Shown here one piece after another: positions 26,439 to 60,805 of a stretch of 60,805 bases of DNA (position 1 is its first letter; each line of letters begins with the position of its first letter). Under the pieces are notes generated by a model. The model ran no database searches. It was not told the origin of the DNA and saw nothing but the letters and a program-made list of their open reading frames with translations. Made by a program: the position numbers and the translations under genes. The DNA lies in contig JBJLJN010000019.1 in the NCBI GenBank assembly GCA_045559735.1, forward strand, positions 1 through 60,805, written 5' to 3'. The DNA is from Candidatus Thalassarchaeum sp. Lineage in GTDB: Archaea > Thermoplasmatota > Poseidoniia > Poseidoniales > Thalassarchaeaceae.

Positions 26439-26453
26439 CGAGCCGATAAGGGC

Positions 26454-37627: not shown

Positions 37628-37645
37628 CATGCCCCTAAGGGCATG
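37628..37645 (+). promoter_or_regulatory. 18-nt palindrome CATGCCC-CTAA-GGGCATG whose right arm contains the start codon of the 1081-aa gene
   Basis: Read directly: 7-nt arms and a 4-nt spacer, with the ATG at 37643-37645 inside the right arm. Its function is unknown. Confidence 0.3.
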
Positions 37646-40888: not shown

Positions 40889-40973
40889 GAGCCGCGTTGG
40901 TTATTTTATTTCTGATAAGTCATGGATTATCGGCCATATAACGTCGAAATCCTCAATTTCAGGGCTATTTGGG

Positions 40974-40994
40974 TATTTACACCCCATAGGGGTG
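40974..40994 (+). promoter_or_regulatory. Putative promoter/operator: TATTTA box (40974-40979) immediately followed by palindrome CACCCC-ATA-GGGGTG (40980-40994)
   Basis: Read directly. It lies 63 nt upstream of the signal-peptide ATG at 41057. The same arrangement occurs upstream of the giant ORF at 46565-46593. Confidence 0.4.
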
Positions 40995-41056
40995 CTCTGA
41001 GCATCTTACGACACGATTATATCATTTCCATCGCCTCATGCACGTTAGTGACACCC

Positions 41057-44000
41057 ATGAACGAGAACGCCCCACGCTCTGTATGTCTAGTTGTACTGAT
41101 GATTGCCGCCATTGCACTGCCTTTGATGCAGACCGGACCTCCTCCTGAATTGGAGGTTATTCCGGCCAAGGAGGAGGTTGCTGCCAACCCCTGTCAGGGC
41201 TATGATGCCTGTTTAGGCCACGATGCTGGCGGATATAACTACGGGAACGAGATTTGTCCCGGGGGCTCAGGGGTGTGTCCTGTCGGTAATCTGACTACAT
41301 ACGTTGATTACGGCTCAAGCGAGACGACAACCACGTTCTATGGTCACATGGAGGGGTATTTCTCCCCCTACACTACCGATGACGACGATAAGTACTCGAT
41401 TTGGGTCCCTGCGGGCTACGGAGTCAATGCGACCCTTTCCTGGAACGGCACTGGAACCATGATGTACGGGGCAATCGGTAGCGGTTTGACTGGTACTTAC
41501 TCTGGCTATGACACCTTTGGATACGGCGCCATTTCCGGAGTGACAATGTCTACTATCGGTACTGCGGTGAGCAATACTCTTGTCGACATCTATCTTGACT
41601 GTTACTACTCCTATTGCTCACAAACAGGCTCCAACAGCCCCACTGGGTCTGGCTATGATTACAAGATGGAGATCACCACCTGGCCGTCTGATGCTGGAGG
41701 GTATGGCGATTCTACCCAGGCATATTCGACAGGAGTTACTTCCACTTGGGACAATGGCGATACCTATGTCGGTGCTTGCCAGCGCTATGGTGGCACTATA
41801 GCATGCCAAGTTCCTCACTCTACTAACAACGGAGCTGACACAGGTACCAAGACTCTCGCAGCCGGAGAGTCATTCGGCCTATTCGTCAATCACGACCACT
41901 ATGCAGATACCGAGTCTACACTCACTGTCACTTGTACCTCTGGTACTCAATCAGCAGCGATTGCTCAGAACGACGGTTTCCTTCCAAGCACTAACGATGC
42001 CGGAAAGTTTCTGGCATCGTTTTCCGGACCAGATGTATGTACAGCTGTAACCACTGACATATACAACGACGGCGGAATAGAGGCTTACTGGGCAGGTATG
42101 ACGCCTCCAGTAACGGGTCTTCTGACCGCTTCTCTGGTCACAACCCCGGCTTCTCATTACGGAGTAGTCGGAACCACTGACATCTCTGATACTTATGCAG
42201 TAGTCATCCCTGATGGGACCTTTGGCGCACTGACTCTGGACTGGGATGGAAATGTCGATCTGGATTTGAGAGTATACACCGACTCAGCCCTCACATCTCT
42301 GCATGCTGGGTCATACTACAGCCAGCCTGAGACAATTGATCTATCTTCATTGGGCGACGACATCACCGTATACGCCAAGGTCAGTTACTACAGCTACTGG
42401 TCTACAGATCCGGCCTCAGGGTACTCCCTGACGCTCGATCTCACGCCTTCAGTATTCCCGCCGTGCTGGTTCCAAGATGATGGGGCAGCAGTGGGCATGG
42501 GTGTTTACGACGGCACTGGTTCAGATGCACCCTCTTCCAGAACTGGTGCAACCACACTATCGGGCATGAGCGGATCCATCACAGGTATGATCTGCGATGG
42601 CACCGACAGCCTGGATACTGCGGATTGGTTCGAGTTCACAGTTCCAGCCGATCATGGTCTCTGGGCTATGCTGGAATGGACCAAGAACGAATCAACAGAT
42701 TATCTAATGCTTTACCAGTACATGGAACGCTTCGGCAGCCAGTACAGTGTATCCAACTCGATCAGTTCTTTCTTCGCTACACAGGCAGTGTCTTCCAACG
42801 AATCTTACAGCTGGAGAACTGATCTTTCCCTCACGACGACCAGTTGGATTGCAGTTATGGCCGGCAACATGGTCGATGATGAGGAGTACAACTACACCCT
42901 CACTTGGCAGATGTACAATCAGTCGGAGAGTTGGATCAACCCATCCAACGATGCAGGCTCTGGGGTCGATGCTGGTGACTCGTCTTACGCAGTCTCAAGC
43001 CCCGTGGTTCTACCGTCAGTCAATAACACCTACACTGGCCACGGCCACGACTACGAGGATATGTATGACCAATACAAGGTATACGTGCCTCAGAACTACG
43101 GTCTACACGTAGTTGTGAGCTTCCCTGCGCAGAACGACATCGATGTATTCGTTCGTCGTGTCTCGTCTGGCACCTCTTTGCTTAACATCGCATCTGGTTA
43201 CAATGACAATCCTGAGGACATCTGGATCTACCCAAGTAACGGTGGACAGGATCTGTACATCATCGTCTGGACTGACCGAGGTTCAGGTGCTTACACCATG
43301 GACATAGACCTGATTACCTCAGATACTGATCCCGACCCGGAGGATGACTGTGGCATAGGAATGGATGCTGCTGACACAATTTGGACTAGCTGGTCCGATG
43401 CCACTTGGCTGAACAACTCCAATCAAATAGACGCCAATGGCGATGCTAATGACACTGGAGGTGTATGCACGGGCTGGATTAGCGACCTAGTTGACGAGTA
43501 CGACGTCTACTTGATCAATATTCCACCAGCTCATTACCTGCAGTGGAATGTCTCATGGATACCCCAGCCTGGTGTAACCGTCTACACGTACATGTACAAG
43601 TGTCAGCTTCAGCACCTACCGTGTGGCTCTCAGTCTGCCTACTATGTTTCACAGCAGTACAATTCAGTAGGTTTCACAGCCGGCTCTACCGGACTGTGGT
43701 GGTCTTCAGGTGGATGGGCTGTTCTCGAAGTTAGATCAACTAATGCCGTCCATCTAGACTACACTATGGACATCCAGTTCTTGTCCCTCGCCAGTATATT
43801 CGGAGGCATACAGAATGATGCCAATTCAAGCTTCGATGCTGGCTCTGGAGCCGCAGATGCCGTTCATGTGAACACCTACATCAACCAGACTGGTGACACC
43901 TTGAATTGGCAAGGATGGAACCATCCATCGGTGGACACAACTGATCGCTACACGTTCGATGTACCTGTCAACCATGGCTTCGAGGCCTGTACTGAGCACG

Positions 44001-46057: not shown

Positions 46058-46083
46058 TCCTCGAGACATAACCGGCCCGCCCG

Positions 46084-46102
46084 GGGCCCCAGACTGGGGC
46101 CC
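46084..46102 (+). terminator. GC-rich hairpin (GGGCCCCAG-A-CTGGGGCCC) 27 nt after the stop codon, followed by T-runs
   Basis: The palindrome is read directly. Oligo-T tracts (for example cctatttttt and gttgttttttgtctattttt) begin about 130 nt downstream. Its role as a terminator is inferred. Confidence 0.35.
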
Positions 46103-46169
46103 TGACGGGTCTGGATAATTCAGCTAACACGCGCTCGCCCGCGCGCGTACGCGAGAGAGGGAAGGATCA

Positions 46170-46560
46170 GATGATAACTCCTAATGCGGATTTATCAGCC
46201 GGGAGAAGTGTGTTTCGAGCGTTCCGAACTAACCTATTTTTTACTCTAAATACCCCCTATTTTGAGTTGTTTTTTGTCTATTTTTGGCCCCTTTCATATA
46301 TAAAGAAAAAAGTAATTTCTTTCCTTATTAGATATCAAAATTCCCACTTTTTTACTATTCAATTTCAAGATTCGATTCGATTCGATTCAAAAGCTCGAAT
46401 TTTTCTTCTCCAGGGTGATCGAATTTGATTTTCGGCGGAACCGCAAATAGCTACTTAGTCGACCGATTTGAGATGTTATTTTTCACTGTATTATCAGCCA
46501 AAATCTGCCCCTGAATACCTTCAATGGCCGATTTCATACTCTATCAAAATCAATTATCAG
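46170..46560. other. AT-rich, non-coding island of about 390 nt containing a (GATTC)x4 microsatellite (46369-46388) and T-runs
   Basis: Composition is visibly far more AT-rich than the flanks. Track ORF 46171..46428 translates to F/I/L/Y-rich nonsense. Short direct repeats tcgaattt/tcgaattt and gattcgattcgattcgattc are read directly. Confidence 0.6.
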
Positions 46561-46564
46561 CCCC

Positions 46565-46593
46565 TATTTACCAAACCCACCCTATAGGGTGGG
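46565..46593 (+). promoter_or_regulatory. Putative promoter/operator of the giant ORF: TATTTA box (46565-46570), 5-nt gap, perfect 18-nt palindrome CCCACCCTATAGGGTGGG (46576-46593)
   Basis: Read directly. The palindrome ends 42 nt upstream of ATG 46635. If TATTTA is the TATA box, the palindrome occupies the region from TATA to the expected transcription start. Confidence 0.4.
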
Positions 46594-46634
46594 CTCCGAA
46601 ATGTTCTAAATGCTGGTAGGACCTCAGAAGTAAC

Positions 46635-49600
46635 ATGGTTGCAGCCATGCTTAGAACAAATGAGAACGACAATGCCGCTATTGGGCTTAGAACGACTGAC
46701 CTGAGAAACATCGCAATCGGCCTCGCCGCCGCGATTGCTCTGATCATGGTTGCTGGCCAAATTAGCGACAGCGGTAGCGCTAGCGCTACTGTTCTGGACG
46801 ATGCTCCAGACAAGAGATTCGGATCACCGACACCGGTGACAGACCCATCTTCATCCGCTACTGAGGATGTCGCTTACAGTTCAACCGGACAGTGGGTCGA
46901 CTCCGATGGTGCGATTACATTCACGTTCTCTGGCTGCGCCTCGTGGATGACTTGCGCTGACAACAACAACGGAGGAGCTGGTTCTGTCTCAACCTTCACA
47001 ATTTCAGGTACTCCAGCAGATGCTAACGTTGGTGCAACCACAGTGACGATTAGCGGTGCCCAAGGGGGGCAGACTGTCCAGCGATCTGTAACCATCACAG
47101 TTTCTGAAGTAAACGATGAGCCTACGGCGACTGCAAGCGCCGTAGGCGGCACTTTCACTGAAGATGGGTCTAACGTGGACCTGTTCTCCTCACCTTCAGT
47201 CGGAGATGGGGACTCTCAGGTCGCTCAGACCTGGGACAAGATTGTGATGACTATCACAAATGTCGCCGATGCAGAGGAGTACATCGTTATCGATGGCTCT
47301 GAGTGTGACATCACCGCGTCTGCCACCTGTGTCGCCAACACAGCGACTAATGAGGGAGCTGCGGTAGTCTCATTGAATTCCGGGACTGCAACATTGACCT
47401 GGACTGCTGATGATGGTACAATTGTCGATGCCGAGATGGTTGCACTGATTGATGCCCTTGCTTACAAGAGCGATGACCAGAGCCCGACCAATGGTAACCG
47501 TGTCATCACAATCACTCAACTGGATGACGAGGGCAGTACTGGTGGCAACCACGACAACTCGGTATCCCTCTCATTGGCTGCTACAGTTACTGTAGCGGGA
47601 GTCGATGACGACCCAGCCTTCGCTGGTACTGGCAACACTGGGACATATACCGAGGATGCTGGCGGCACAGTTAGCGACACAGCTGCTGCTACAGATGCTG
47701 ATGGTGAGACCATTACTTACAGTTGCACTTCTTGCAACGATGCAGGCTCAACTCAAACGCTTACTGACACTTACGGAGCTTGGGTTGTGACTGAGGCAAC
47801 CGGTGCATGGGTCTACACACCTGATGACACTGACAATGACTTGAATTCATTGAACGCTGCCGAAGCTGCCTCAGAAACTCTCACGATGATTGCTACTGAT
47901 GCATCTGGAGGTACCACTGACTCCATCACTATTACCATAACAATCACCGGAGCGAACGATGCTCCGACGACTGCTACAGGCTCTAAAACCACAGCTGAAG
48001 ACACTCTAGTCACACTTGCAGACAGCGACTTCACCTTCAACGATGTTGACGACGCACATACAGCCTTCACTCGAATCTACATCAAGGATTTAGAAAGCTC
48101 TGGAGATTTAGAGTGCTATGCTCGAAACGGAGTTGGAGCTGCGTGGGCAGATTGTCAGGATGAGGATTACGTCACTTCGGGAGCATATATCCGATTGACA
48201 CCTGCCACAGATTCAACTGCCACTGTTACTTTCAACTTCTGCGTTTACGATGGAGTCGCCTGTTCTGCATCTACTCAATTTTCAGTAACAGTTACTCCGT
48301 CAAATGACGCTCCGACGATTTCTATCCAGGACGACACTCTGGATACCAATGAAGACACATCTCTTACGATGAACACCGGAGGATCAGACGGATTCACTGT
48401 CGCCGATGCCGAGAGTGCAACTCTCACAGTGACCCTTGCTACCAGTGCTGGTACGCTGACTCTGGCTGATGTCAGTGCAGCTGACTTCTCAGGTGGTTGC
48501 AGTGGTGCAGCCGGAGATGGTACTACTGACACTACTATGACCTTCTGCGCTACCCCGACGAACACCAATACTGCGGTTGATGGACTGGTCTTGGCACCCG
48601 CATCAAACTCAGAGGCTACTCACACAATTACAATCACTGTCAACGACGGTGTCAACAGCGCTGTGCAAGATACCATCGCTGTCACGATCAATGCACAGAA
48701 CGATGCACCAACAGCTTCTGACGCTACTGTCACAGCACTTGAGGACGCTACCTACACATTCTCTTCCTCTGACTTCGGATTCACCGACGTCGATTCAGGC
48801 GCCTCACTCAAATCCGTAACTCTTCAGGCGGCAACCGCAGGAACTCTGTGGGTCGATTCTGATAGCAATGGAGCCGTCAATGGCGGCGAAGCAGCAGTAC
48901 AGAACAACGACGTAGTTCTAACCGCAAACATTGCCAAATTGAAGTGGAAGCCTGCAGCAGATGCAAGCGGTACGATTGGCACCTTCGCATTCATAGTGAC
49001 TGACAACGCCGACGCAGCCTCAGGCTCTTACACGATGACACTCTCGATAACCGCTGTCAACGACGAGCCTACCCTTACTGCTACGGGCCTTACTCCTACT
49101 TTCGCTGAGGATGGTGCAGCAAAAGACCTGTTTTCTGGACCAGCTGCCGGCTACGGAGACACTGATGGCTCCGAGAGCGCCGACCGAATTAACAGTCTGA
49201 CAATTACTGTCACAAACGTCGCTGACACAACCGAATACCTCACTGTCGACGGCACTGCTTGCGACTTGACTGATGGCAACTCCGAGACAACATCAGGCAA
49301 CTCAATGACCTGTGCTGTTACACTCTCTGGTAGCACTGCCACTGTGGCACTGTCTCACTCAGGTCTGACCTCTGCAGCCATCAACACCATCATCGATGCT
49401 ATGACCTACGAGAATAGCGACCAGAGCCCGACCATTGGCAGCACCCGTGTTGTGACCATTACTGCTATCGGCGATGATGGAGGTACAGCCAACGGTGGTG
49501 ACAACTCGAAGTCGGTAACAATCGCTGCGACAGTCACTCTTACCAAGTCGAACGACCTTCCAACTTCAGCGGCTGGCTCTAAGACCATCACAGAGGATCA

Positions 49601-52600
49601 GCAGACAGCTCTTGCTGCTAGTGACTTCACCTTCACGGATCTCGATGGTGACACAATTTCAAGAATTCGGATTACTACCACAGAGAGTGCTGGCGATCTA
49701 GAATGCAACAACAAGAACGGCGGCGGCGGCGGCTGGACTGACTGCGCCACAAATGACTACGTGGCTGCAGGAACAGATCTCAGGTTCCAGCATGCAACGG
49801 ACGATGTTTCATCAGAGACATTCAGTTTCGAGGTCCACGATGGCACTGGATACAGCAGCGCACAGTACGTCTTTACCATCTCGATAACACCTGTCAACGA
49901 TGCACCTGCCAACGCAGGCGACACGGCAACTGTTACCGAGGATACAGACTACAATAGTTGGACTGCAGCTACTGACTGGGGCTGGTCGGATGTCGATTCA
50001 GGAGACGCCCTTACACATGTCAAGATCTGGACTTGTCCTACCGCCGGCACGATGACTGTTGGAGGCAGCGCTTGCGACGCCGAGAATTCCCAGGCCACCC
50101 TGGCCAACCTGAACACTATCGTGTATTCACCCGTTGCTAATTCAGACACTGGCAATCCGACATTCACCTACAAACTGTATGACGGAGATGATTGGTCAGC
50201 AGCAGGGACAATGACGCTATCCTTCTCTGCTCAAAACGATGCTCCCTCCAATGCAGGTGACACGGCTACTGTTACCGAGGATGCAGCATATACTTCCTGG
50301 ACTCAAGCTACTGACTGGGGCTGGTCGGAAGTTGATACTGGCGACACTCTAGAGTCAGTTCTCTTTGTAACGTGTCCATCTTCTGGTACATTCACAATTG
50401 GTGGTGTTGCTTGTAATGCAGGTGTATCTTCATCCACTCTCGGGAATCTGAACTCCGTTTCATTCACCACTGCTTCCAACAGTAATGCAGGGGTGACATT
50501 CACCTACAAGCTGTATGATGGAGAAGCTTATTCTGCTGTAGGGACGATGACGATTTCAGTCACTCCTCAAAACGACGCCCCGTCCGCAGGAGCTACCGCA
50601 GACCAGACCATTTACGAAGACGTCGCTTACAGTTTCACCACCACCACTTCGACTGACGTCGATGGTGATACGTTGACAATCACCTGCGAGGAGCAGAATA
50701 ACGCAGGCAACGCTGAATCGGCTCTTCCCGCCTTCATCGCTGTTTCCAATCAAGGAGATGGTACTGCTGTTATTTCAGGTACTGCAGCTCATGCAAACTT
50801 AGCTGCATCCGATGACTCAGACAGCACTTACAACGTCCTTTGTACCACAACCGATAATGGTGCAGGATCTCTAACTGCAACCGACCTGTTCGTAATCACA
50901 GTCACTGAGATTAACGACGCACCAGTCCTCGCTTCTTCCACGGGTACCTCTGCTACTGCAGGCACCGCCATAGAGGACAAGTCCGGCGGAGTCACTTTCA
51001 CTCTGACAGCCACTGATGAGGAGTCAAACGATGCGACCTTCGCTGAAGGCTCATCATGTCCGGCTTGGATGACTGTAGCCGATGGCGGCGGCGCTGCCAT
51101 GACTGGTACGATCGCCATCGCAGAGGCAGCTCTGACTGATGCAAGAGTCGGTGACCACGATTGTGATGTCACCATCACTGATGGTACCACAACAGCACTC
51201 TACACTTACACTGTGACTATCTCTGAAATAAATGACGAACCTACTCTGACTGCGACAGGTGCCAGCCCAACTCACACTGAGGGAAGTTCGGGTGAGACTT
51301 TGTACTCGAACGCTGCCGCGGCCGACTCGGATTCACAAGCTACACAGACCTTCACTTCACTGACTCTCACCGTAACGAATGTGCAGGATACCACTGAATC
51401 CATCTACTTAGACGGAGGCTGGGAATCTCTAGCAGCCATGGGTTCGACCTCGACCACCGACACGAACTCATACACCTACCAGATTACCGGCTGTTCCACT
51501 ACCTGTACTGTCGCTTTGACCGGAATGACACTAACTGCTACGCAAATGCAGACCTTGGTTGATGGCTTGAAATACAAGAATACCGATGATAGCCCGACAG
51601 ATGCTAACCGTGTCGTCACCATAACTCAGATGACGGACAGCGGCGGCACAGGTGGCGCCGGCGCGGACGATACTGTAACTCTCAGCATTGTTTCCACTGT
51701 CAATGTCGATCTTGCCAATGATGCACCTGATGCATCTGGAGCATCTGCTACCATTGCCAATATCGCAGAAGATACCACCAATCCTGGAGGTTCAACAGTA
51801 TCTGCCGCGCTTAGTGGCGTTACTGACGCAGACGCAGGCTCAAGCGTCAACGGTATTGTGATTTGCTCATACACTCACGACGCTGCCAAGGGAACTTGGG
51901 CGTACGAGGTTGACGCAAGTGGGAACTGGGTTACCATTTCCACTCGCACTGATAACGAGAACTGTCTTGGCATAGAGGATGATGACAAGATCAGATTCGT
52001 TCCTGCCGCCAACCACAATGGTGCGGCAACCACTCTATCTGTGATAGTGGTCGACAACACCCAGGCCATCGCCTCTGGAACAGCGACCTACGACGCTTCG
52101 TCAACAGGAGGAACCACGGCTTTCTCCAGCAACACAGTCTCTGTTTCTCACTCAGTAACTGCAGTCAATGACGCCCCGATTGCTTCAGGCTCAACTACTC
52201 TCACTACCATCAACGAAGATGCGACCCCTACGGGACAGACTGTTACGGCCTTGTTCGCAAGCAACTTCGCTGACTCTGCAGACAGTGACGCTCTGGCAGG
52301 AATCTGTATCTCAAGCTATACCAGTGCTGCTGCCAAGGGAGTTTTATCTTACTCACAAGATGGTAGCTCATACAGTACAGTTGCTACCGTTGCTGCACTT
52401 AACGCTGGAACTACAATCAGAGCTGCTAACTATCTGAAGTTCACACCGACAGCTGACTACAGTGGCACCTCCCCGACAATCACAGTGGTCCTGATAGAAG
52501 ACTCAGGAGGCGCTGTTGCTGGCGCTGCAGCTACAAACGTAGACTGTTCTTACTCTGCTTCTGGAATTTACAGTACTGCTACTGTTGCACTCACAATGAC

Positions 52601-55600
52601 TGTGAATGATGTCAACGACGAGCCTACCCTTACAGTTACTACTGCTACTCCAACCTTTACTGAGGATGGCTCAGCAGTCTCATTGTATTCGAACGCGGCT
52701 GCAGGCTACGGAGACACTGATGGCTCCGAGAGCGCCGACCGAATTAACAGTCTGACAATTACTATCACAAACGTCGCTGACACAACCGAGTACCTCAATG
52801 TCGACGGCACTGCTTGCGACTTGACCAATAGCAACTCCGAGACAACATCAGGCAACTCAATGACCTGTGCAGTTACAGTCTCCAGTGGTACTGCTACTGT
52901 GACACTGACTCACTCAGGTCTGACCTCTGCAGCCATACAGACCATCGTCGATGCTATGACCTACGAGAATAACGACCAGAGCCCAACTACAGGAAGCCGC
53001 GTCGTGACTATCACTGCTATCGGAGATGATGGAGGTACAGCCAACGGTGGTGACAACTCGAAGTCGGTAACACTCGCTTCGACAGTCACCGTTGCATCTC
53101 TGAACGATGCTCCAACAGCTTCTGGCTCAGCCACTCTAGCTGCTATCAATGAGGATGCAACAGCATCAGGGGCTACAGTTTCATCTCTGTTCACCAGTAA
53201 CTTCGCTGATACCGATGGCGATGCGATTGGAGGAGTTTGTCTCACATCGTACACCGAGGCCACAAGCAAGGGTCAGTGGAAGTACTCTACCAATGATGGA
53301 GGCGCATGGACAGCACTGAGTGATATCACAGCCGCTACCGCAGGCGTCTACATCCGTGCTGCTGACGAACTTGCCTTCGTCCCTGCAGCTAACTGGAATG
53401 GTGCCGCACCAACTATGACTGCCACTTTGTCTGATGACTCGGGTAACGAGCCGGCAACTGCCGCTACTACAAACTGTGCAACAACTGGTACAACCACCGT
53501 TTACAGTACTTCAGGTGTGACTCTATCCCATACTGTAAACGCAGTCAACGATGCTCCAACCGTGTCTGATACAACACAGGCCCTTTCCTCTATCGCAGAA
53601 GATGGAACGCCGTCGACCACCACCACTGTCTCCAATCTGTTCAGCGCCTCGTTCGCTGACAGTGCAGATTCAGATGGATTCGCTGGCGTCTGTATCATCT
53701 CGTATTCCGAGGATACTAACGAGGGCCAGTGGAAGTGGTCCAACGATGGAAGCAGTTTCACTGCGATCTCAACAGTTTCATCTGATTCTTCCGGACTCAT
53801 CCTGGATGACGCTAGTCGTCTGCAATTCGACCCTGCGTCCAACTTCAACGGTGCTGCTAACACGATTAGCGTAGTTCTGGTCGAAGATTCGGGCGGAGCA
53901 CTCACCACTGATGCTAGTGCTGACGATTGTTCATCGAATGGCGGCTCCACAGTTTACAGCGCCGACGGAAGTCCAGTCGTACTATCTCACAGTGTGTCTG
54001 CTGTCAACGACGCACCGACTTCATCTGGTGGTTCATCCGCCCACGGCCATCCTAACGAGGACGCCACATACACCTTCACCACAACTGAGTCCCACTGGGG
54101 CTACTCTGACGTTGAGAGTACCGCTATGGCTACCGTCGACTTCACGACTCTGCCAAGCACTGGTACTCTGATGTACAGTGGCAACGCAGTTACCGTGGGA
54201 CAGGACATCGCTGCGGGCAGCCTCGGAGGGGTGACATACGTACCAGTCGCTAACGCTAATGGTGCAATCACGTTCACCTTCAAGACCACTGATGGATCCG
54301 ATTGGCAGAGTTCACCAGCGACTTACACCATTACTTACGCAGCTGTCAACGATGCACCTGACGTATCTAGTGCTACGGCTACTATATCTGCCATCAATGA
54401 GGATACTTCTGCACCCAGCGGTTCGACAATTTCCTCTATGCTGAGTAGTGTATCCGATGTCGATTCAGGCTCTTCGGTCAATGGTGTTGTAATCTGTTCA
54501 TACACTCACGACGCTGCCAAGGGAACTTGGGCGTACACTGCTGACGGCTCCTCTTGGTCCGACATCGCCACTCGCTCTGACACATCCAACTGTCTGGGCG
54601 TAGAGGACGATGATTCAATCAGATTCGTCCCTGCGGCTAACTATGCGGGAGCGGCAACCGCTCTATCCGTCCATGTAGTTGACAACACTCAGGCCATCGC
54701 CACTGGAACTGGAACCTATGATGCAGCATCGACGGGTGGTACAACCGCATTCTCCGCTGCACTGTCTGTCTCACACACAATCACTGCAGTTGACGATGCA
54801 CCTGCATTCTCGTCTGCATCAGGCAGCGTGAATGTTAACGAAGGCTCTACTGCAGTAGGAACTTACACGGCCACCGACGCAGAAAGTGATTCCATCACGT
54901 ACACGAAGTCGGGTACCGACGCCTCTCTGTTCGCAATCGGCTCATCTGACGGAGTGCTGACTTTCTCCTCTGCTCCAAATTATGAGAGTCCAGGTTGTGG
55001 ATCAGGTTCTAACTCTAACACCTGTACAGTGATAATCACCGCTACAGCCAACTCAAAGACGGATACGCACACACTAACTGTGAACGTCCAGGATCTCAAC
55101 GACGAGAGCCCTGTTTGGCAGACCTCCGCAAGCCAGTCTGTCGATGAGAACACTCGCAATGTCGTAGCTACACTATCGGTAACTGATGGCGATTCTGCGG
55201 ACAGCAACACAGCCACCTATGCTATCACCAGCAACGACAACAGCCTGTTCGAGATAAGCAGCTCAACTCTGAGATTCGCCGCGAGTGGTGGCGCCAACTA
55301 CGAGAGTCCGGGCTGTGGAGGCAGTTCTAATTCCAACACTTGTACAGTCACTGTCAGGGCTTCTGACGGTGCAAGCTCAGCCAACACTGCTGACCGCACC
55401 TTCACAATCACCATAGGAGATTTGAACGACCAGACACCAAGTTACTCTCGCTCCTCTGGAGATTTGACTCAGAACTACGCCGAGGCCACTACCACGGCGA
55501 TTGACTCGTTCTCGATTACCGACACAGATACAGGCAACTCGTTTTCCTGTAATGTCGGAGGAGACGACTCTGGTGATGTGAGCTGTTCGATTTCAAGCAC

Positions 55601-58600
55601 CACAGTAACAGTGTCTTTCGCCTCTCAGCCAAACTACGAGAGTCCTGCTGACAACGGCGGTAACAATGTCTACGACTTCACCATCTCAGTCAGTGACGCA
55701 TCATCCGGTGGAAACACTGGTTCGACTCTGACCTACGAAATCACAGTCACCGACACAGATGAGTTCGATGTCTCAACACCGACCGACTCCAACTCTGGTA
55801 GCAACACTGTCGCCGAGAACGCAGCTGACAACGCTGCGGCCGGAATCACTGCATCAGCATCCGATTCTGATGGAACTACCAACACTATCACCTACTCGAT
55901 GGTAATCTCTACTAGCGCTTGTAGCGGCTGGTTTGACATTGGCCAATCAGATGGTATCGTGCGTGTTGACGGCTCTAACGAACTCGATTACGAGACTGTC
56001 ACCAGTTGTGCCGTAGTAATTACTGCTACGAGTGCAGACACTTCGGCCAAGGATCTGTCTACTAGCATTTCCATTACGGATGTGAACGATCAGACGCCAG
56101 CTGCTACCGTAGCAGCTACCTACAACGTTGCCGAGAATGTAGCGACAGTCGCCTCAATCTCGGTGACAGATACAGACACATCCGGAACCCTTGCCTGCTC
56201 GGTCGCAGGAACAGACAGCAGTTTGTTCACTTGCTCAATTTCGAGTGGAACGGCCACCTTGGCATTCGCTTCTGCACCTAACTTCGAGAGTGCGGGAGAT
56301 TCCGGTGGAAACAACGTCTATGACATCCAAGTCACTTTCACAGACGGCGCTAACACTCTGGGAGCACAGACAACTGCAATCACAGTAACAGATGCCAACG
56401 AGGCACCTTCGATTACCAGTACTGCCGTAACAAGCGCTACTGAGGATGCTGCTTACTCCTACACTGTTCAGTCTAGTGATCCGGATGATGGAGATCCGCA
56501 TTCGAACTCCGTAACTATCACCTGCACTACCGGCTGCAGTTCTGGAGCCTGGCTTTCTGTATCTGGCGCAGTTCTCTCGGGAACTCCCGGTGACGATGAG
56601 GTTGGATCATACTCAGTCGTTCTGACTGCTTCGGATGGTTCACTGACTTCGACCCAGTCGTTCTCCATCACTGTGACAAATGTAAACGATGCAGGAAGCG
56701 TTGCACTGTCTGGAACCGCAGCTGAGGATTCGCAACTGACCGCTACTCCTTCAGATGATGACAACGATGGCTCTGGTGATACCTACACGTACGCGTGGCA
56801 GAGCTCTTCAGACCTCTCCACATGGTCCAGCATAGGCTCAAACTCCAACACCTACACTCTGACTCAATCTGAGGTTGGCAAGTACGTGCGCGTGACAGTA
56901 TCCTATACTGACGACGATGGAACAGTCGAGTCTCACTCTACGCAGACCACATCCACCATCTCTAACGTCAATGACGCTAACACCGCTGTACCAACAATCA
57001 GCGGCACACTCACTCAGGGACAGACCTTGACTGCAAGCCCAGCACCTCTGTCAGGCAACGATGAGGATGGCACGACTACCGCCGATGCAAGCTCGTACGC
57101 AGGTTACTCATATCAATGGCAGAGCTGTACTACCTCTGCTGCATCAAGTTGCAGTAACATGAATGGTAAGACATCTTCGACTTTGGCTCTTAGCAACGAC
57201 GAGGTTGGCAAGTACATGCGCGTCGTTGTTAGTTACACAGATGACCAAAGTACTGCCGAGAGCGTCAACAGTGCAATCTCCGCCGTAGTCGGTAACATCA
57301 ACGATGCAGCTTCGATCAGCGGTGCAAACACCGGATCTGTTACTGAAGACGCATCCTCACCTGCCAGCGGTACTCCGACTGTTACAGACCCAGATTCTGG
57401 TGAGAACACTCTGCTAACTGTTTCAGCTGGAACGGCCAGCGTCAGCGGTTACGGTACCTTCGGTGTTTCCAGTGGCACTTGGACTTACACTCTGGATGAC
57501 ACTGACAGTACAGTCAACGCTCTGATTGCTGGAGCCAGTCTGCAAGACACATTCGTAGTCACCAGTGCTGACGGAAGCGATACCATGACCGTTACAATCA
57601 CGATTACTGGTGCAAACGACGCAGCTACCATCGGCGGTACCACAACAGGAACCGCCCAGGAAGACACCTCTGATGGATCCGGTACTCTGACAGTGACTGA
57701 CGTCGATACAAACCAGGCATCTTTCACTGCGGTCTCATCCGCAACTGACAGTATCAGCGGCTACGGTACCTACACAATCACCACTGCCGGAGTTTGGGCA
57801 TACACGCTCGATGACTCTGACAGTGCTGTGCAGGCACTCGCTGCAGGCGCTTCGATGACTGACACCTTCTCGGTGACCAGCGCTGACGGTACTGCTCAGA
57901 CTGTTACCATCACGATTAGTGGTCTGAACGACGCAGCTACCATCGGTGGAGACACCACAGGAACTGCTCAGGAGGACACCTCTGACGGATCCGGTACTCT
58001 GACAGTGTCTGATACTGATTCAAACCAGAACACTTTCACTGCGGTCTCATCCGCAACTGACACTGCAAATGGCTACGGTACCTACACAATCACCACTGCT
58101 GGAGTTTGGGCATTCACGCTCGATGACTCTGACAGTGCTGTGCAGGCACTCGCTGCAGGCGCTTCGATGACTGACACCTTCTCGGTGACCAGCGCTGACA
58201 ATACTGCTCAGACTGTTACCATAACGATTAGCGGTCTGAACGACGCAGCTACCATCGGTGGAGCCACCACAGGAACCGCTCAGGAGGACACCTCTGACGG
58301 ATCCGGTACTCTGACAGTGTCTGATACTGATTCAAACCAGAACACTTTCACTGCGGTCTCATCCGCAACTGACAGTATCAGCGGCTACGGTACCTACACA
58401 ATCACCACTGCCGGAGTTTGGGCATACACGCTCGATGACTCTGACAGTGCTGTGCAGGCACTCGCTGCAGGCAGTACACTGTCTGACAGCTTCTCGGTGA
58501 CCAGCGCTGACGGTACTGCTCAGACTGTTAGCATCACGATTAGTGGTCTGAATGACGCAGCTACATTCGCTGGAGACACCACAGGAACCGCTCAGGAGGA

Positions 58601-60805
58601 CACCTCTGACGGATCCGGTACAGCTACTGTGGCCGACACAGATACTAATCAGGCCACCTTCACTGCATCCAGCGGCTCTGCCACCTACGGTACCTACGCC
58701 ATGGCTACCAGTGGTGCTTGGACCTACACCCTGGATGATTCGAAATCCGCTGTGCAGGCACTGACCAGCTCAGGCAGTCTGTCTGACAGCTTCTCGGTGA
58801 CCAGCGCTGACGGTACTGCTCAGACAATCTCGATTACAATTAGTGGTCTGAATGACGCACCTAGCATCGACAGTACAGCTGTGACAAGCGCTACTGAGGA
58901 TTCTGCTTACTCCTACACTGTTCAGTCTAGCGACACAGACACAGGAGAGACACCAAGCCTCACTTGCAGCTGCCCAAGCTGGGCTACATTCACTGACAAC
59001 AGTGATGGCACAGCTTCGTTCACAGGCACTCCTCTTGAGGCACATGTTGGATCATCAAGCGTGACAATTACCGCAGCTGATTCGGCTACATCCACAGCTC
59101 AGACATTCACTCTGACTGTTGCAAATACGAACGATGACCCAACCGGTTCACTTTCAATCACTGGAACAGCTCAGGAGGATGAGGTTCTCGGAATCGCTCA
59201 GTTGCTGGCAGATGAGGACGGCCTCGGCACCTTCAGCTACCAGTGGAAGAGAGATGGCACTGCAGTTTCCGGTGCTACTGGTCTGACATACACACTCGGA
59301 CAGAGTGATGTAGGTTCAGCAATCACCATCACAATCTCTTATACCGATGGCCACGATACCGCGGAGAGCGTCACCAGTGCTGCAACGAGCAGCGTTCAGA
59401 ACATTAACGATGCATCTACTGTCGCCATATCTGGAACTGCAACTGAGGATCAGACTCTGACCGCCACAGTCACTGATGAGGATGGCGCCACTGGCACCAT
59501 CACATACGAGTGGAGGCGTGACGGCACTGCAATCAGCGGTGCTACTGCTTCCACCCACTTGCTAACTCAGACTGATGTTGGTACAGCTATTTCCGTCTAT
59601 GTGTCATTCACAGATGACTACTCGAATGGCGAGACCGCTACCAGTTCCGCTACTTCAGCAGTTGCTAACGTCAACGACAACCCAACAGGTACTGTGACAA
59701 TCACTGGTACAGCTACCGAGGACCAGACTCTGACCGCTTCAGATACCCTAGCGGACGAAGATGGCCTGGGCTCGATAACCTACACTTGGAGCAACGGTGC
59801 TACAGGCTCGAGTATAGTACTCGGCCAGACTGATGTTGGCAACGCAATTACTGTGACCGCAGCTTACACTGACGGCCAGAGCACAGCTGAGAGCGTTGCA
59901 AGCTCTGCGACCTCAGCAGTTGCAAACGTCAACGACAGCCCAACAGGTGCAGTGACCATCACTGGTACTCCGACCGAGGACCAGACTCTGACCGCTTCCA
60001 ACAACCTAGCGGACGAGGACGGTATGGGCACTGTATCGTACGCATGGAGCAACGGTGCTACAGGCTCGAGTATAGTACTCGGCCAGTCTGATGTTGGCAG
60101 TGCAATCACTGTGACCGCATCTTACACTGACGGCCAGCTAACGGCTGAGAGTGTTGCAAGCTCTGCAACCGCAGCAGTTGCGAACGTCAACGACGCTGGC
60201 TCAGGACTCAGTCTTGCCAGCGATGGTGATGTATCCGACCCAGATGAGGACGACACACTCAGTGTGACCGGAACTCTATCTGACGAGGACGGATGTACTG
60301 GCACCACGTGCGCACTCACGTACGCATGGAGTACTGGAGAGACCAGCAGCACAATCGCCCTTGGACAATCCCATGTCGGAGAGACAATCTCGGTTACTCT
60401 GACCTACTCTGATGATCAGTCCGAGACGAACACGATCACTCTGACTGCAACTTCCGATGTTGACAACGTCAACGACAGCCCAACAGGTGCAGTGACCATC
60501 ACTGGTACTCCAACCGAGGACCAGACTCTGACCGCTTCTGATACCCTAGCGGACGAGGACGGCATAGGCGCAATTACCTACACTTGGAGCACTGGTGCTA
60601 CAGGCTCGAGTATTGTACTCGGTCAGTCTGATGTTGGCAACGCAATCTCTGTGACCGCAGCTTACCAGGACTCTCAGGGTACATCTGAGAGTGTTGCAAG
60701 CTCTGCAACCGCAGCAGTTGCAAACGTCAACGATGCTGGCTCAGGACTCAGTCTTGCCAGCGATGGTGATGTATCCGACCCAGATGAGGACGACACACTC
60801 AGTGT
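46635..60805 (+). CDS. Giant cadherin-like / VCBS-repeat adhesin, 5' partial in this window (>4723 aa, no stop before window end)
   Basis: This ORF is not in the supplied track. The frame with positions divisible by 3 has a TAG at 46617-46619 and its first ATG at 46635. I translated this frame by eye across 46635-55000 and 56400-60805 with no stop, and read 55000-56400 less carefully without noticing one. Every + strand ORF listed after 46.6 kb is in one other frame (start mod 3 = 1). The N-terminus MVAAMLRTNEN...IAIGLAAAIALIMVAG is a signal anchor. Dozens of modules of about 100 aa follow, bounded by (V/I)ND(A/E/S)P. Confidence 0.9.
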   Translation, partial: MVAAMLRTNENDNAAIGLRTTDLRNIAIGLAAAIALIMVAGQISDSGSASATVLDDAPDKRFGSPTPVTDPSSSATEDVAYSSTGQWVDSDGAITFTFSGCASWMTCADNNNGGAGSVSTFTISGTPADANVGATTVTISGAQGGQTVQRSVTITVSEVNDEPTATASAVGGTFTEDGSNVDLFSSPSVGDGDSQVAQTWDKIVMTITNVADAEEYIVIDGSECDITASATCVANTATNEGAAVVSLNSGTATLTWTADDGTIVDAEMVALIDALAYKSDDQSPTNGNRVITITQLDDEGSTGGNHDNSVSLSLAATVTVAGVDDDPAFAGTGNTGTYTEDAGGTVSDTAAATDADGETITYSCTSCNDAGSTQTLTDTYGAWVVTEATGAWVYTPDDTDNDLNSLNAAEAASETLTMIATDASGGTTDSITITITITGANDAPTTATGSKTTAEDTLVTLADSDFTFNDVDDAHTAFTRIYIKDLESSGDLECYARNGVGAAWADCQDEDYVTSGAYIRLTPATDSTATVTFNFCVYDGVACSASTQFSVTVTPSNDAPTISIQDDTLDTNEDTSLTMNTGGSDGFTVADAESATLTVTLATSAGTLTLADVSAADFSGGCSGAAGDGTTDTTMTFCATPTNTNTAVDGLVLAPASNSEATHTITITVNDGVNSAVQDTIAVTINAQNDAPTASDATVTALEDATYTFSSSDFGFTDVDSGASLKSVTLQAATAGTLWVDSDSNGAVNGGEAAVQNNDVVLTANIAKLKWKPAADASGTIGTFAFIVTDNADAASGSYTMTLSITAVNDEPTLTATGLTPTFAEDGAAKDLFSGPAAGYGDTDGSESADRINSLTITVTNVADTTEYLTVDGTACDLTDGNSETTSGNSMTCAVTLSGSTATVALSHSGLTSAAINTIIDAMTYENSDQSPTIGSTRVVTITAIGDDGGTANGGDNSKSVTIAATVTLTKSNDLPTSAAGSKTITEDQQTALAASDFTFTDLDGDTISRIRITTTESAGDLECNNKNGGGGGWTDCATNDYVAAGTDLRFQHATDDVSSETFSFEVHDGTGYSSAQYVFTISITPVNDAPANAGDTATVTEDTDYNSWTAATDWGWSDVDSGDALTHVKIWTCPTAGTMTVGGSACDAENSQATLANLNTIVYSPVANSDTGNPTFTYKLYDGDDWSAAGTMTLSFSAQNDAPSNAGDTATVTEDAAYTSWTQATDWGWSEVDTGDTLESVLFVTCPSSGTFTIGGVACNAGVSSSTLGNLNSVSFTTASNSNAGVTFTYKLYDGEAYSAVGTMTISVTPQNDAPSAGATADQTIYEDVAYSFTTTTSTDVDGDTLTITCEEQNNAGNAESALPAFIAVSNQGDGTAVISGTAAHANLAASDDSDSTYNVLCTTTDNGAGSLTATDLFVITVTEINDAPVLASSTGTSATAGTAIEDKSGGVTFTLTATDEESNDATFAEGSSCPAWMTVADGGGAAMTGTIAIAEAALTDARVGDHDCDVTITDGTTTALYTYTVTISEINDEPTLTATGASPTHTEGSSGETLYSNAAAADSDSQATQTFTSLTLTVTNVQDTTESIYLDGGWESLAAMGSTSTTDTNSYTYQITGCSTTCTVALTGMTLTATQMQTLVDGLKYKNTDDSPTDANRVVTITQMTDSGGTGGAGADDTVTLSIVSTVNVDLANDAPDASGASATIANIAEDTTNPGGSTVSAALSGVTDADAGSSVNGIVICSYTHDAAKGTWAYEVDASGNWVTISTRTDNENCLGIEDDDKIRFVPAANHNGAATTLSVIVVDNTQAIASGTATYDASSTGGTTAFSSNTVSVSHSVTAVNDAPIASGSTTLTTINEDATPTGQTVTALFASNFADSADSDALAGICISSYTSAAAKGVLSYSQDGSSYSTVATVAALNAGTTIRAANYLKFTPTADYSGTSPTITVVLIEDSGGAVAGAAATNVDCSYSASGIYSTATVALTMTVNDVNDEPTLTVTTATPTFTEDGSAVSLYSNAAAGYGDTDGSESADRINSLTITITNVADTTEYLNVDGTACDLTNSNSETTSGNSMTCAVTVSSGTATVTLTHSGLTSAAIQTIVDAMTYENNDQSPTTGSRVVTITAIGDDGGTANGGDNSKSVTLASTVTVASLNDAPTASGSATLAAINEDATASGATVSSLFTSNFADTDGDAIGGVCLTSYTEATSKGQWKYSTNDGGAWTALSDITAATAGVYIRAADELAFVPAANWNGAAPTMTATLSDDSGNEPATAATTNCATTGTTTVYSTSGVTLSHTVNAVNDAPTVSDTTQALSSIAEDGTPSTTTTVSNLFSASFADSADSDGFAGVCIISYSEDTNEGQWKWSNDGSSFTAISTVSSDSSGLILDDASRLQFDPASNFNGAANTISVVLVEDSGGALTTDASADDCSSNGGSTVYSADGSPVVLSHSVSAVNDAPTSSGGSSAHGHPNEDATYTFTTTESHWGYSDVESTAMATVDFTTLPSTGTLMYSGNAVTVGQDIAAGSLGGVTYVPVANANGAITFTFKTTDGSDWQSSPATYTITYAAVNDAPDVSSATATISAINEDTSAPSGSTISSMLSSVSDVDSGSSVNGVVICSYTHDAAKGTWAYTADGSSWSDIATRSDTSNCLGVEDDDSIRFVPAANYAGAATALSVHVVDNTQAIATGTGTYDAASTGGTTAFSAALSVSHTITAVDDAPAFSSASGSVNVNEGSTAVGTYTATDAESDSITYTKSGTDASLFAIGSSDGVLTFSSAPNYESPGCGSGSNSNTCTVIITATANSKTDTHTLTVNVQDLNDESPVWQTSASQSVDENTRNVVATLSVTDGDSADSNTATYAITSNDNSLFEISSSTLRFAASGGANYESPGCGGSSNSNTCTVTVRASDGASSANTADRTFTITIGDLNDQTPSYSRSSGDLTQNYAEATTTAIDSFSITDTDTGNSFSCNVGGDDSGDVSCSISSTTVTVSFASQPNYESPADNGGNNVYDFTISVSDASSGGNTGSTLTYEITVTDTDEFDVSTPTDSNSGSNTVAENAADNAAAGITASASDSDGTTNTITYSMVISTSACSGWFDIGQSDGIVRVDGSNELDYETVTSCAVVITATSADTSAKDLSTSISITDVNDQTPAATVAATYNVAENVATVASISVTDTDTSGTLACSVAGTDSSLFTCSISSGTATLAFASAPNFESAGDSGGNNVYDIQVTFTDGANTLGAQTTAITVTDANEAPSITSTAVTSATEDAAYSYTVQSSDPDDGDPHSNSVTITCTTGCSSGAWLSVSGAVLSGTPGDDEVGSYSVVLTASDGSLTSTQSFSITVTNVNDAGSVALSGTAAEDSQLTATPSDDDNDGSGDTYTYAWQSSSDLSTWSSIGSNSNTYTLTQSEVGKYVRVTVSYTDDDGTVESHSTQTTSTISNVNDANTAVPTISGTLTQGQTLTASPAPLSGNDEDGTTTADASSYAGYSYQWQSCTTSAASSCSNMNGKTSSTLALSNDEVGKYMRVVVSYTDDQSTAESVNSAISAVVGNINDAASISGANTGSVTEDASSPASGTPTVTDPDSGENTLLTVSAGTASVSGYGTFGVSSGTWTYTLDDTDSTVNALIAGASLQDTFVVTSADGSDTMTVTITITGANDAATIGGTTTGTAQEDTSDGSGTLTVTDVDTNQASFTAVSSATDSISGYGTYTITTAGVWAYTLDDSDSAVQALAAGASMTDTFSVTSADGTAQTVTITISGLNDAATIGGDTTGTAQEDTSDGSGTLTVSDTDSNQNTFTAVSSATDTANGYGTYTITTAGVWAFTLDDSDSAVQALAAGASMTDTFSVTSADNTAQTVTITISGLNDAATIGGATTGTAQEDTSDGSGTLTVSDTDSNQNTFTAVSSATDSISGYGTYTITTAGVWAYTLDDSDSAVQALAAGSTLSDSFSVTSADGTAQTVSITISGLNDAATFAGDTTGTAQEDTSDGSGTATVADTDTNQATFTASSGSATYGTYAMATSGAWTYTLDDSKSAVQALTSSGSLSDSFSVTSADGTAQTISITISGLNDAPSIDSTAVTSATEDSAYSYTVQSSDTDTGETPSLTCSCPSWATFTDNSDGTASFTGTPLEAHVGSSSVTITAADSATSTAQTFTLTVANTNDDPTGSLSITGTAQEDEVLGIAQLLADEDGLGTFSYQWKRDGTAVSGATGLTYTLGQSDVGSAITITISYTDGHDTAESVTSAATSSVQNINDASTVAISGTATEDQTLTATVTDEDGATGTITYEWRRDGTAISGATASTHLLTQTDVGTAISVYVSFTDDYSNGETATSSATSAVANVNDNPTGTVTITGTATEDQTLTASDTLADEDGLGSITYTWSNGATGSSIVLGQTDVGNAITVTAAYTDGQSTAESVASSATSAVANVNDSPTGAVTITGTPTEDQTLTASNNLADEDGMGTVSYAWSNGATGSSIVLGQSDVGSAITVTASYTDGQLTAESVASSATAAVANVNDAGSGLSLASDGDVSDPDEDDTLSVTGTLSDEDGCTGTTCALTYAWSTGETSSTIALGQSHVGETISVTLTYSDDQSETNTITLTATSDVDNVNDSPTGAVTITGTPTEDQTLTASDTLADEDGIGAITYTWSTGATGSSIVLGQSDVGNAISVTAAYQDSQGTSESVASSATAAVANVNDAGSGLSLASDGDVSDPDEDDTLS
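54790..56410 (+). repeat. About six consecutive canonical cadherin-type repeats within the giant ORF
   Basis: The translation shows ...SLFAIGSSDGVLTFSSAPNYESPG...TLTVNVQDLNDESPVW; ...SLFEISSSTLRFAASGGANYESPG...FTITIGDLNDQTPSY; ...WFDIGQSDGIVRVDGSNELDYETV...ISITDVNDQTPAA. This is the x-F-x-I-...-L-x-x-x-x-x-(D/N)YE ... (D/N)xNDxxP cadherin pattern. Confidence 0.75.
57300..58850 (+). repeat. Five tandem VCBS-type repeat units (315, 312, 312, 312, 300 bp) within the giant ORF
   Basis: Unit starts (AAC/AAT of NDAA(S/T)) are at 57300, 57615, 57927, 58239 and 58551, with the next boundary at 58851. Each unit encodes ...GT(A/V)QEDTSDGSGTLTV(S/T)D(T/V)D(S/T)NQ..F......GYGTYTITTAGVWAYTLDDSDSAVQALAAG.S..D.FSVTSADGTAQTV.ITISGLNDAAT. 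Units 2-4 share long identical DNA stretches. Confidence 0.85.
59149..60805 (+). repeat. Tandem modules of about 86-94 aa (N(V/I)ND.PTG.VTITGT.TEDQTLTAS..LADEDG.G...Y.WS.GATGSSIVLGQ.DVG.AI.VTA.YTDGQ..ESVASSAT) with a 540-bp two-module super-repeat, running off the window
   Basis: Module starts are at about 59149, 59404, 59671, 59929, 60187, 60469 and 60727. Segments 59929-60245 and 60469-60785 are near-identical at the DNA level with an offset of 540 bp. Two related modules lie at 56.69-57.30 kb. Confidence 0.85.

Follow-up and report, generated by a model that had tools for sequence, protein, structure and literature searches.

What does the last 14 kb of contig JBJLJN010000019.1 encode, where the list of open reading frames (ORFs) looks empty? 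In the whole contig (60,805 nt; “the window”), one frame on the forward strand is open from position 46635 to the contig edge; we refer to it as the giant gene and to its product as the giant protein. This region probably covers the first 14.2 kb of a real gene for a giant, acidic, exported, and Ca2+-stiffened surface protein of the adhesin type, the adhesin function being suggested by homology. Whether it also represents an undescribed type of locus, in which a fixed promoter and leader “socket” would carry interchangeable giant mosaic bodies under lineage-specific selection for freedom from N-glycosylation sequons (N-x-S/T), we judge to be evenly balanced. Giant, Ca2+-dependent surface adhesins built of multiple immunoglobulin (Ig) domains are known already; what is new here is the purging of sequons, and the conserved leader socket with a replaceable body.

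Reading frame and module anatomy

We first address the frame itself. An earlier note on this DNA had proposed a frame running from ATG 46635, preceded by TAG 46617, to the last base, and had called for a computational translation. This translation (46635–60803, +) yielded 4723 codons with zero stops, and TAG 46617–46619 is indeed the nearest in-frame stop upstream of the ATG. With 4728 codons, this open stretch exceeds every other one in the six frames, the runner-up reaching 2068; with ~4% stop codons expected per random codon from base composition, we calculate the probability of 4723 stop-free codons arising by chance as ~e^-200. ORFs listed after 46.1 kb are all ≤149 amino acids (aa) and mostly antisense, in agreement with the short, mostly antisense ORFs noted earlier after 46.6 kb. 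However, the unlisted frame is not, as the same note had it, a structure left unexplained by the features: the track appears empty because the listing omits any ORF that runs off the source, i.e., has no stop in the window, which makes this an artefact of ORF listing and no biological oddity. A rank “among the largest archaeal proteins” was likewise overstated, since archaeal proteins of >10,000 aa have been reported (bioRxiv 10.1101/2023.11.21.568195), and the giant protein is large, not record-sized.

The frame is unterminated at the last base of the window, and the final 71 nt (60735–60805, +) are an exact copy of 60195–60265. The assembly thus breaks at a repeat and the gene continues past it: the contig end is the point where the short-read assembler met this repeat, and the gene is cut there. 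Genes of this type systematically break short-read assemblies and drop out of ORF lists. At the 5′ side, two contigs from independent assemblies (L001 and L002) match 36936–48401 at 99.99–100% identity, so that the archaeal flank is confirmed to be joined to the giant gene, up to 1.8 kb into the latter.

The visible product is a 474-kDa protein with a pI of ~4.05, containing 448 Asp, 140 Glu, and 74 Lys or Arg residues (Lys+Arg 1.6%). Recurring linkers of the xND(A/E/Q/S)P type divide the chain after the leader into 40 complete modules and the start of a 41st (D01–D41), which fall into about six families of β-sandwich modules by all-against-all clustering. Eighteen boundaries have the ND[AE]P form, consistent with the ND(A/E)P-bounded units recognized earlier, and 37 linkers are of a looser ND type. 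Modules D01–D20 (aa 56–2723; 46800–54803, +) were defined by segmentation, clustering, and Pfam searches on representatives. They comprise members of a He_PIG/VCBS-like group (D01, D03, D11, and D12, with D26 and D29–D34 farther along the chain), a 163-aa unit of the form FTEDG...DQSPT that we call module B (D02, D07, D13, and D16), units of Cadherin_3/Big_9 type by Pfam (~115 aa; D04, D06, D08–D10, and D19), a 150-aa G.W.Y variant of the latter (D14, D15, D17, D18, and D20), and one lone module (D05). The four copies initially counted for module B were therefore right, while their length, given as about 135 aa, is really ~163 aa; the “at least five” G.W.Y modules correspond to the five 150-aa copies.

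Canonical extracellular cadherin (EC) repeats follow (D21–D25, aa 2724–3257; 54804–56405, +; PF00028), and then a He_PIG Ig domain (D26) with the first two copies of a unit termed module F (D27–D28; altogether 56406–57308, +; Pfam). Next come a tandem VCBS array (D29–D33; 57309–58859, +; TIGR01965, 312-nt period), and a further He_PIG module (D34) leading into the module F array (D35–D41; 58860–60803, +), the latter delineated by repeat analysis and clustering. Module F (EDQTLTA...Y.W...YTDD, 86–110 aa) is represented by D27, D28, and D35–D40, i.e., eight modules of the EDQTLTA type that had been picked out before as EDQTLTA...Y.W...YTDG. The array closes in a higher-order F–F′ repeat of 540 nt, with the frame still open.

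Profile searches of the kind suggested in the earlier note returned Cadherin, VCBS, He_PIG, and Big_9 matches, and the cadherin and VCBS repeats that it had named were both recovered. In the whole protein, Pfam detected Cadherin_4 (E 1e-73), Cadherin (PF00028), and Big_9. PF00028 scored 41.4 bits over 2 stretches against a cut-off of 28.8, with D24 alone at 32.9 bits, and TIGR01965 (VCBS) scored 378.5 bits against a cut-off of 15.5 (E 1e-115; 7 stretches, the best at aa 3682–3782), while He_PIG on D26 reached 46.4 bits (cut-off 24). Linkers within D21–D25 are of the DxNDxxP type (DLNDESP, DLNDQTP, and DVNDQTP), and these modules also carry motifs of the DxD and xEx types (TDGDS/TDTDT and VDEN/VAEN), all predicted Ca2+ motifs; sequences of cadherin-23 and protocadherins in the PDB match aa 2795–3354 (E 3e-9 to 1e-3). 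The VCBS tandem copies are 82–91% identical, and D29–D32 are colinear over 424 aa (~50% identity, E 1e-67) with PDB 6xi1, a tetra-tandemer of the Aeromonas hydrophila long adhesion protein AhLap, the extender of which is rigidified by inter-domain Ca2+ ions (PMC7493085). The module F profile matches the Ig domain of T4 Hoc (E 1e-7) and a PKD domain, and its homologues carry PF23197 (IG_AIR9).

Module B had no match in Pfam and no sequence match in the PDB. Its profile collected 1211 cluster representatives, including giant bacterial adhesins with a DUF4347 domain, and no full-length orthologue was present among the 150 best of these representatives. An AlphaFold2 (AF2) model of aa 55–559 (23-sequence alignment; mean predicted local distance difference test (pLDDT) 85.4) consists of four tandem β-sandwiches, in which module B is predicted to form an enlarged sandwich with one helix. 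The structures closest to this model are the titin I-band, the ectodomains of N-cadherin, LI-cadherin, and protocadherin (protocadherin-15), and the GhpA grappling hook. For the 150-aa G.W.Y unit, there was no sequence match in the PDB, and its β-rich AF2 model (pLDDT 76, 5-sequence alignment) gave no significant Foldseek match (best E 0.03). Overall, this anatomy supports the initial description of a giant archaeal surface protein of adhesin type with at least five module families, open at the contig edge.

Sequon depletion and the leader socket

We then evaluated the potential of the giant protein for N-glycosylation. Counts covered 46635–60803 in the window and, at related loci, L034 10001–11484, L035 6452–21879, L036 10001–15566, and L037 10001–12544. 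Given 243 Asn and 30.5% Ser+Thr, 73 ± 7 sequons would be expected in the giant protein, where 2 are observed (z ~ −10), both of them N-D-S-P in linkers. Control motifs were at normal frequency, with 55 reverse [ST]-x-N (72 expected), 139 D-x-S/T (134 expected), and 30 Q-x-S/T (32 expected), and N-x-[AG] was enriched (97 vs 52 expected). The depletion is present in every 1000-aa block, the C-terminal third included. Since a set of one representative per module family still contains 1 sequon where 26.5 are expected, repeat redundancy does not explain it.

The same depletion extends to the archaeal relatives: 2 sequons were found vs ~181 expected in homologues of the N-terminal 600 aa (23/24 proteins), 2 vs ~71 in the fragments of the L035 homologue, and 0 vs 12–16 in other alleles at the locus. 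Meanwhile, exported proteins encoded next to the giant gene are 1.4–2.3× enriched in sequons (42 observed vs 18 expected for an S8 protease on the same contig, 22 vs 10.5 for a 1081-aa protein, and 19 vs 14 for a 1711-aa protein), an 892-aa protein encoded elsewhere on the contig has 9 vs 4, and neighbors of the other alleles contain 19–23 vs 12–15 expected. Bacterial proteins built from the same modules display observed/expected ratios of 1.04 for module B (147 proteins), 0.80 for module F, and 0.89 for thrombospondin type 3 (TSP3) repeats.

The simplest reading of this pattern is a lineage-specific purifying selection against N-glycosylation of the giant family, and such purging would in turn imply that the giant protein is exported and comes into contact with the oligosaccharyltransferase. 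Glycans might be excluded to protect Ca2+ linkers, the folding of modules derived from non-glycosylating bacteria, or adhesion surfaces, or else to avoid glycan-binding viruses. In open-access text, we found no prior account of sequon depletion in archaeal adhesins. If this reading is correct, sequon depletion could serve as a sequence signature for functionally “bare” archaeal adhesins, i.e., as a clean evolutionary signal that a protein is exported, exposed to glycosylation, and yet must stay unglycosylated, which is a testable statement about archaeal surface proteins.

A different conservation pattern characterizes the 5′ end of the gene. Positions 46553–46814, i.e., an upstream element and ~60 codons, are 89% identical at the nucleotide level to L037 (9919–10180) and L038 (9221–9482), while flanking orthologous genes are 71–77% identical; the counterpart in L036 extends to ~10185. 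Nucleotide homology to L036–L038 stops abruptly at 46814–46819. Four related proteins (P0030, P0036, P0040, and P0044) share only a 62–66-residue leader (71–90% identity) and continue with unrelated modules, and in P0031 and P0057 the leader passes directly into cadherin repeats. All of these alleles, representing at least four classes, occupy the same syntenic slot. The locus is thus a conserved slot, in which promoter and leader sequences are kept and the mosaic body is swapped between relatives, as expected of a surface protein under diversifying selection. Such a combination of conserved leader and replaceable body would point to a strong diversifying pressure from viruses, grazers, or substrates. 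The giant allele of L036 is split into two adjoining ORFs (1030 and 824 aa, meeting at 13093/13095) that lie in different frames and are both sequon-free; on this short-read-derived contig, the split may reflect a real frameshift or programmed event, or else an assembly error.

The conserved upstream element (46553–46634, +; 82 nt) is shared without change by L034, L035, and the window, in contrast to the diverged intergenic DNA around it. It begins with ATTATCAGCCC (46553–46563) and contains an 18-nt perfect palindrome (CCCACCCTATAGGGTGGG, 46576–46593) just 5′ of the TATA-like TTCTAAAT box; the TATA-like box (TTCTAAATGC, 46604–46613) ends ~21–23 nt before the ATG. This element probably serves as promoter and operator of an mRNA with a short leader or none, with the palindrome as candidate operator. 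A/T-rich boxes located 20–30 nt before some other ORFs lend weak support to leaderless promoters in general. The motif TTATCAGCC occurs three times in the window (46192–46200, 46491–46499, and 46554–46562) vs 0.21 expected. All three copies lie within the 577-nt intergenic region before the giant gene, the nearest one being the only copy conserved in relatives, and the motif may be a regulator binding site.

ATG 46635 is kept in three related loci, where ATGGTTGCAGCCATG is invariant, which supports this codon as the true start. The conserved leader (aa 1–60; 46635–46814, +), identified through hydropathy and sequence comparison, starts with MVAAM and consists of a charged n-region, a hydrophobic IAIGLAAAIALIMVAG (aa 26–41; hydropathy segment at aa 21–39), DSGSASA, and a final stretch ending in DKRF. 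It would correspond to either a Sec-type signal peptide or an uncleaved signal anchor. A type IV pilin-like (class III) signal was considered and rejected, as there is no G/A at position −1 before the hydrophobic stretch.

Proposed function and rival explanations

The C-terminus of the window gene lies beyond the contig, and we looked for its likely nature in relatives. Homologue searches returned proteins of up to ~1.75× the query length, which kept giant homologues out of reach, and these proteins included no near-identical fragment that would prolong the gene at its 3′ end (best identity 69%). An exact 30-mer from the contig tail had no match, nor did a protein scan of metagenome contigs yield one. 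The contigs encoding the 1711-aa neighbor (9.6 and 11.5 kb) end inside or before the giant gene and provided no extension, and a whole-protein scan of genome contigs retrieved bacterial loci only, through their module F and VCBS patterns, with no archaeal orthologue.

Two long-read relatives were more informative. L035 is a pilon-polished contig of 131 kb. Its homologue begins at 6452, has not terminated by 21881 (≥15.4 kb), and is broken into ~14 frame-shifted ORFs. This single gene sits at the same locus, contains the same module types (VCBS, module F, and He_PIG), and passes from Ig-type modules into TSP3 repeats (16564–21881). The last product called in it, 1048 aa long and starting at 20755, would place the gene end near 23.9 kb, from which we infer a gene of ~17.4 kb, or roughly 5,800 aa. 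L039 is 77–81% identical to L035 16314–21881 and includes the end of the gene: TSP3 repeats, which match the throspo3_MtsC model (E 8e-24), then ...DNLPGFTAVISSLALLGAAIGVGLSGRRKND-stop, followed by downstream genes including SRP54. The terminal segment (7060–7308) reads ...LPGFTAVISSLALLGAAIGVGLSGRRKND*, i.e., LPGF, a transmembrane (TM) helix, and RRKND-stop, and scores 18.6 bits (E 0.001) with TIGR04126 (PGF-CTERM), under the curated cut-off of 24.5. The giant gene of these relatives thus encodes ~2,000 aa of TSP3 repeats before a PGF-CTERM-like motif, which suggests an archaeosortase-type anchoring in these lineages; no archaeosortase gene was detected within the window. By extrapolation, a similar tail would bring the window gene to >6,000 aa, as it already has more Ig-type modules than its relatives, although alleles differ.

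Given these observations, we propose that the conserved promoter and 60-residue leader would drive Sec export of a body forming a rod of at least 40 Ig/cadherin-like β-sandwich modules joined by Asp/Asn-rich “xNDxP” linkers. By homology to cadherins and to the AhLap extender, these linkers would bind seawater Ca2+ and stiffen the chain, resulting in a rod that we estimate at >150 nm (~4 nm per module), which would project from the cell and may attach it to particles, algae, or other cells. Because the homologous gene in relatives ends in TSP3 repeats and a PGF-CTERM-like motif, the protein is most likely held at its C-terminus, through an archaeosortase-type or TM anchor, with its N-terminal modules pointing away from the cell. 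The rod would be kept free of N-glycans in a host with otherwise sequon-rich surface proteins. If the new type of locus outlined at the start is real, marine Thermoplasmatota would display a naked, Ca2+-stiffened rod on an otherwise glycosylated cell surface.

Several observations weigh against this proposal. No ligand-binding “head” domain (lectin, vWA, etc.) was recognized in the 4723 aa, and the actual C-terminus, as mentioned above, is beyond the contig. The PGF-CTERM-like match comes from a distant relative, on a low-coverage and error-prone contig, and is below cut-off. Strong conservation of the whole 60-aa leader fits an uncleaved N-terminal anchor equally well, which would give the opposite topology. 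Codon usage of the giant gene correlates at 0.5–0.6 with that of housekeeping genes on the contig, uniformly over its length. Finally, a 128-nt exact repeat within the VCBS array (57721–57848 = 58345–58472) could confuse assemblies at k=127, so that the number of VCBS units may be wrong; a copy-number error limited to D30–D32, which would leave the conclusion unaffected, is possible but rather doubtful.

The absence of a recognizable head would also suit a function other than adhesion, namely a variable surface coat or decoy, in which a long non-glycosylated “fur” protects against viruses or grazers or hides receptors, and alleles are replaced under virus or grazer pressure. Replacement of the body, with the leader conserved and four or more allele classes in one syntenic slot, is compatible with such a role, and missing N-glycans could strip glycan receptors from a far-reaching structure. 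However, all identifiable modules belong to families best known in adhesins (cadherin, VCBS/AhLap, He_PIG, and module B), hypervariability is typical of adhesins too, and adhesion and shielding are compatible with each other. We thus regard a coat or decoy, the main rival, as unlikely, though still worth considering.

That the gene itself is an artefact appears far less probable. An archaeal contig might have been joined to a bacterial adhesin gene through repeats, or an array collapsed or expanded: the best genome matches of the C-terminal modules (aa 3200–4723) are bacterial (35–52% identity), independent contigs confirm only 46635–48401 of the giant gene, and both the 128-nt exact repeat in the VCBS array and the 71-nt repeat at the contig end speak for such an artefact. 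Yet sequon purging, an archaeal-lineage signature without a bacterial counterpart, is found in all 1000-aa blocks, GC content at third codon positions (GC3; 0.48–0.52) and relative synonymous codon usage are even along the gene, unlike in the bacterial loci (GC3 0.66–0.81), the long-read contig L035 combines these module types within a single gene at the corresponding locus, and repeat copies are mostly only 82–91% identical. More improbable still is a decaying or silent remnant, i.e., a pseudogene in the making without current function. It is the splitting of the long-read homologues in L035 and L039 into many frame-shifted ORFs that might suggest decay; these contigs are, however, pilon-polished or at 0.13× coverage, and their SRP54 and TrkH neighbors are fragmented too, so that the frameshifts are probably sequencing errors. 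Furthermore, the window copy has no stop or frameshift over 14.2 kb, and both the near-absence of sequons and a leader conserved beyond the flanking genes require ongoing selection.

We therefore return to an exported adhesin-type rod and compare it to known systems. Its closest counterparts in overall design are the RTX or long adhesion proteins (AhLap, MhLap, MpIBP, SiiE, and LapA), which likewise consist of long β-sandwich extender chains with acidic Ca2+ linkers; the giant protein shares their extreme acidity, their VCBS and cadherin-like content, and an AhLap-type block (D29–D32). It differs in its archaeal host, which lacks an outer membrane, in a Sec-type N-terminus (charged region and 16–19-residue hydrophobic segment), in the TSP3 and PGF-CTERM-like tail of its relatives, and in the sequon purging of its family. 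Neither NCBIfam nor Pfam revealed a retention module in the giant protein, no RTX nonapeptide (PF00353) was matched in aa 1–4723, i.e., in the visible part of the protein only, and the 46.6 kb upstream of the giant gene contain no type I secretion system (T1SS) genes (ABC, MFP, or TolC). The giant protein is thus an archaeal counterpart of giant Ca2+-dependent adhesins in bacteria, with shared modules but a different export and anchoring logic, and probably not a member of the RTX/T1SS group.

The DUF4347 giant adhesins (e.g., Candidatus Magnetaquicoccus WP_193771168.1, 5462 aa, and Zooshikella) are comparable in size (2–8 thousand aa) and similarly contain multiple copies of module B (profile E-values down to 1e-294). 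Module B is all that they have in common with the giant protein: the DUF4347 domain itself (PF14252) was absent from the latter in the Pfam scan, no overall colinear orthologue was present among the best 150 module B representatives (best bit score 348), and sequon frequency in these adhesins is normal (the module B ratio above). The long eukaryotic cadherins cadherin-23 and protocadherin-15, in which Ca2+-rigidified tandem repeats span long distances, share true EC repeats with D21–D25 (PDB 5tfm and 6vg4, among others). In the giant protein, however, these account for 5 of ~40 modules, in a prokaryotic and mosaic context, and without a cadherin cytoplasmic domain. Substrates of archaeosortase A with a PGF-CTERM, such as the haloarchaeal S-layer glycoprotein, resemble the family in L039 only (PGF, TM helix, and RRK at the C-terminus), and the L039 TSP3 region matches the model of the MYXO-CTERM TSP3 protein MtsC; known PGF-CTERM glycoproteins are heavily N-glycosylated, whereas the giant family avoids sequons.

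Marine Group II (MGII)-type archaea are among the most abundant uncultured plankton. So far, the attachment of MGII to particles or algae has been inferred from domain lists, and the locus described here provides a concrete candidate. MGII genomes are reported to encode Ca-dependent adhesion domains that are enriched in particle fractions (PMC4511931; PMC6461757), and the proposed rod would fit both these domains and the reported particle association of MGII. The adhesion-domain and thrombospondin proteins reported for MGII (Iverson 2012 as cited in PMC4511931; Orsi 2015; Rinke 2019) match our locus in habitat and type of lineage, with Ca-dependent adhesin domains linked to particle attachment, and the TSP3 proteins next to the giant gene resemble those reported there, such papers listing domains and gene presence. 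No earlier description of giant cadherin-type adhesins in MGII, or of a giant locus combining a conserved leader with a replaceable body, was found in open-access text.

Host and neighbouring genes

The host is archaeal, as indicated by its RNA and protein genes. A full-length RNaseP_arch (233 bits) is located at 26456–26747 (−), along with four tRNAs on the contig, and encoded proteins include an archaeal/eukaryal-type Cbf5 (DKCLD+TruB+PUA), a GPN-loop GTPase (ATP_bind_1), an EMC3/DUF106 insertase, and TruD. Several contig proteins share 90%-identity clusters with proteins that bear the name Candidatus Thermoplasmatota archaeon and derive from marine metagenomes, including Tara. Based on these marine sources, Euryarchaeota/Thermoplasmatota relatives, and Thalassarchaeaceae names among the TSP3 matches, the host would be MGII (Poseidoniales)-like.

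The syntenic neighbors upstream of the giant gene (30491–46057, +; Pfam and NCBIfam) are a 2050-aa S8 subtilase, a 3-hydroxyacyl-CoA dehydrogenase, and TSP3 proteins of 1081 and 1711 aa. This order (S8, 3-hydroxyacyl-CoA dehydrogenase, optionally a protein of ~1080 aa, a protein of ~1700 aa, and the giant gene) is repeated in L034, L036, L037, and L038. The subtilase and both TSP3 proteins start with a signal and have a TM helix at the C-terminus. With 16–20% Asp, the two TSP3 proteins (37643–40888 and 40922–46057, +) are Asp-rich type I membrane proteins. They contain 11 and 14 TSP3 motifs, respectively, match throspo3_MtsC, the model of a Myxococcus cell-cohesion protein, and extend into long, extremely acidic cytoplasmic tails at the C-terminus.

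Farther upstream, the 892-aa protein (3509–6187, +), in which no TM segment was found, has a poly-Pro run near its N-terminus, a DUF11 domain, a long (EP)n repeat near its C-terminus, and a terminal CPICG...CVVC zinc-ribbon-like motif. Two listed ORFs (25848–26507, − and 26510–27559, +) overlap the RNase P RNA, and the second displays an RpiA domain from aa 169 only, its real start being probably well downstream. Similarly, the ORF of a 515-aa acyl-CoA dehydrogenase (28781–30328, +) overlaps by ~290 nt a class II (Asp/Asn) tRNA synthetase gene (27742–29070, +), and its Pfam domains begin at aa 125, i.e., the listed start is probably too early.

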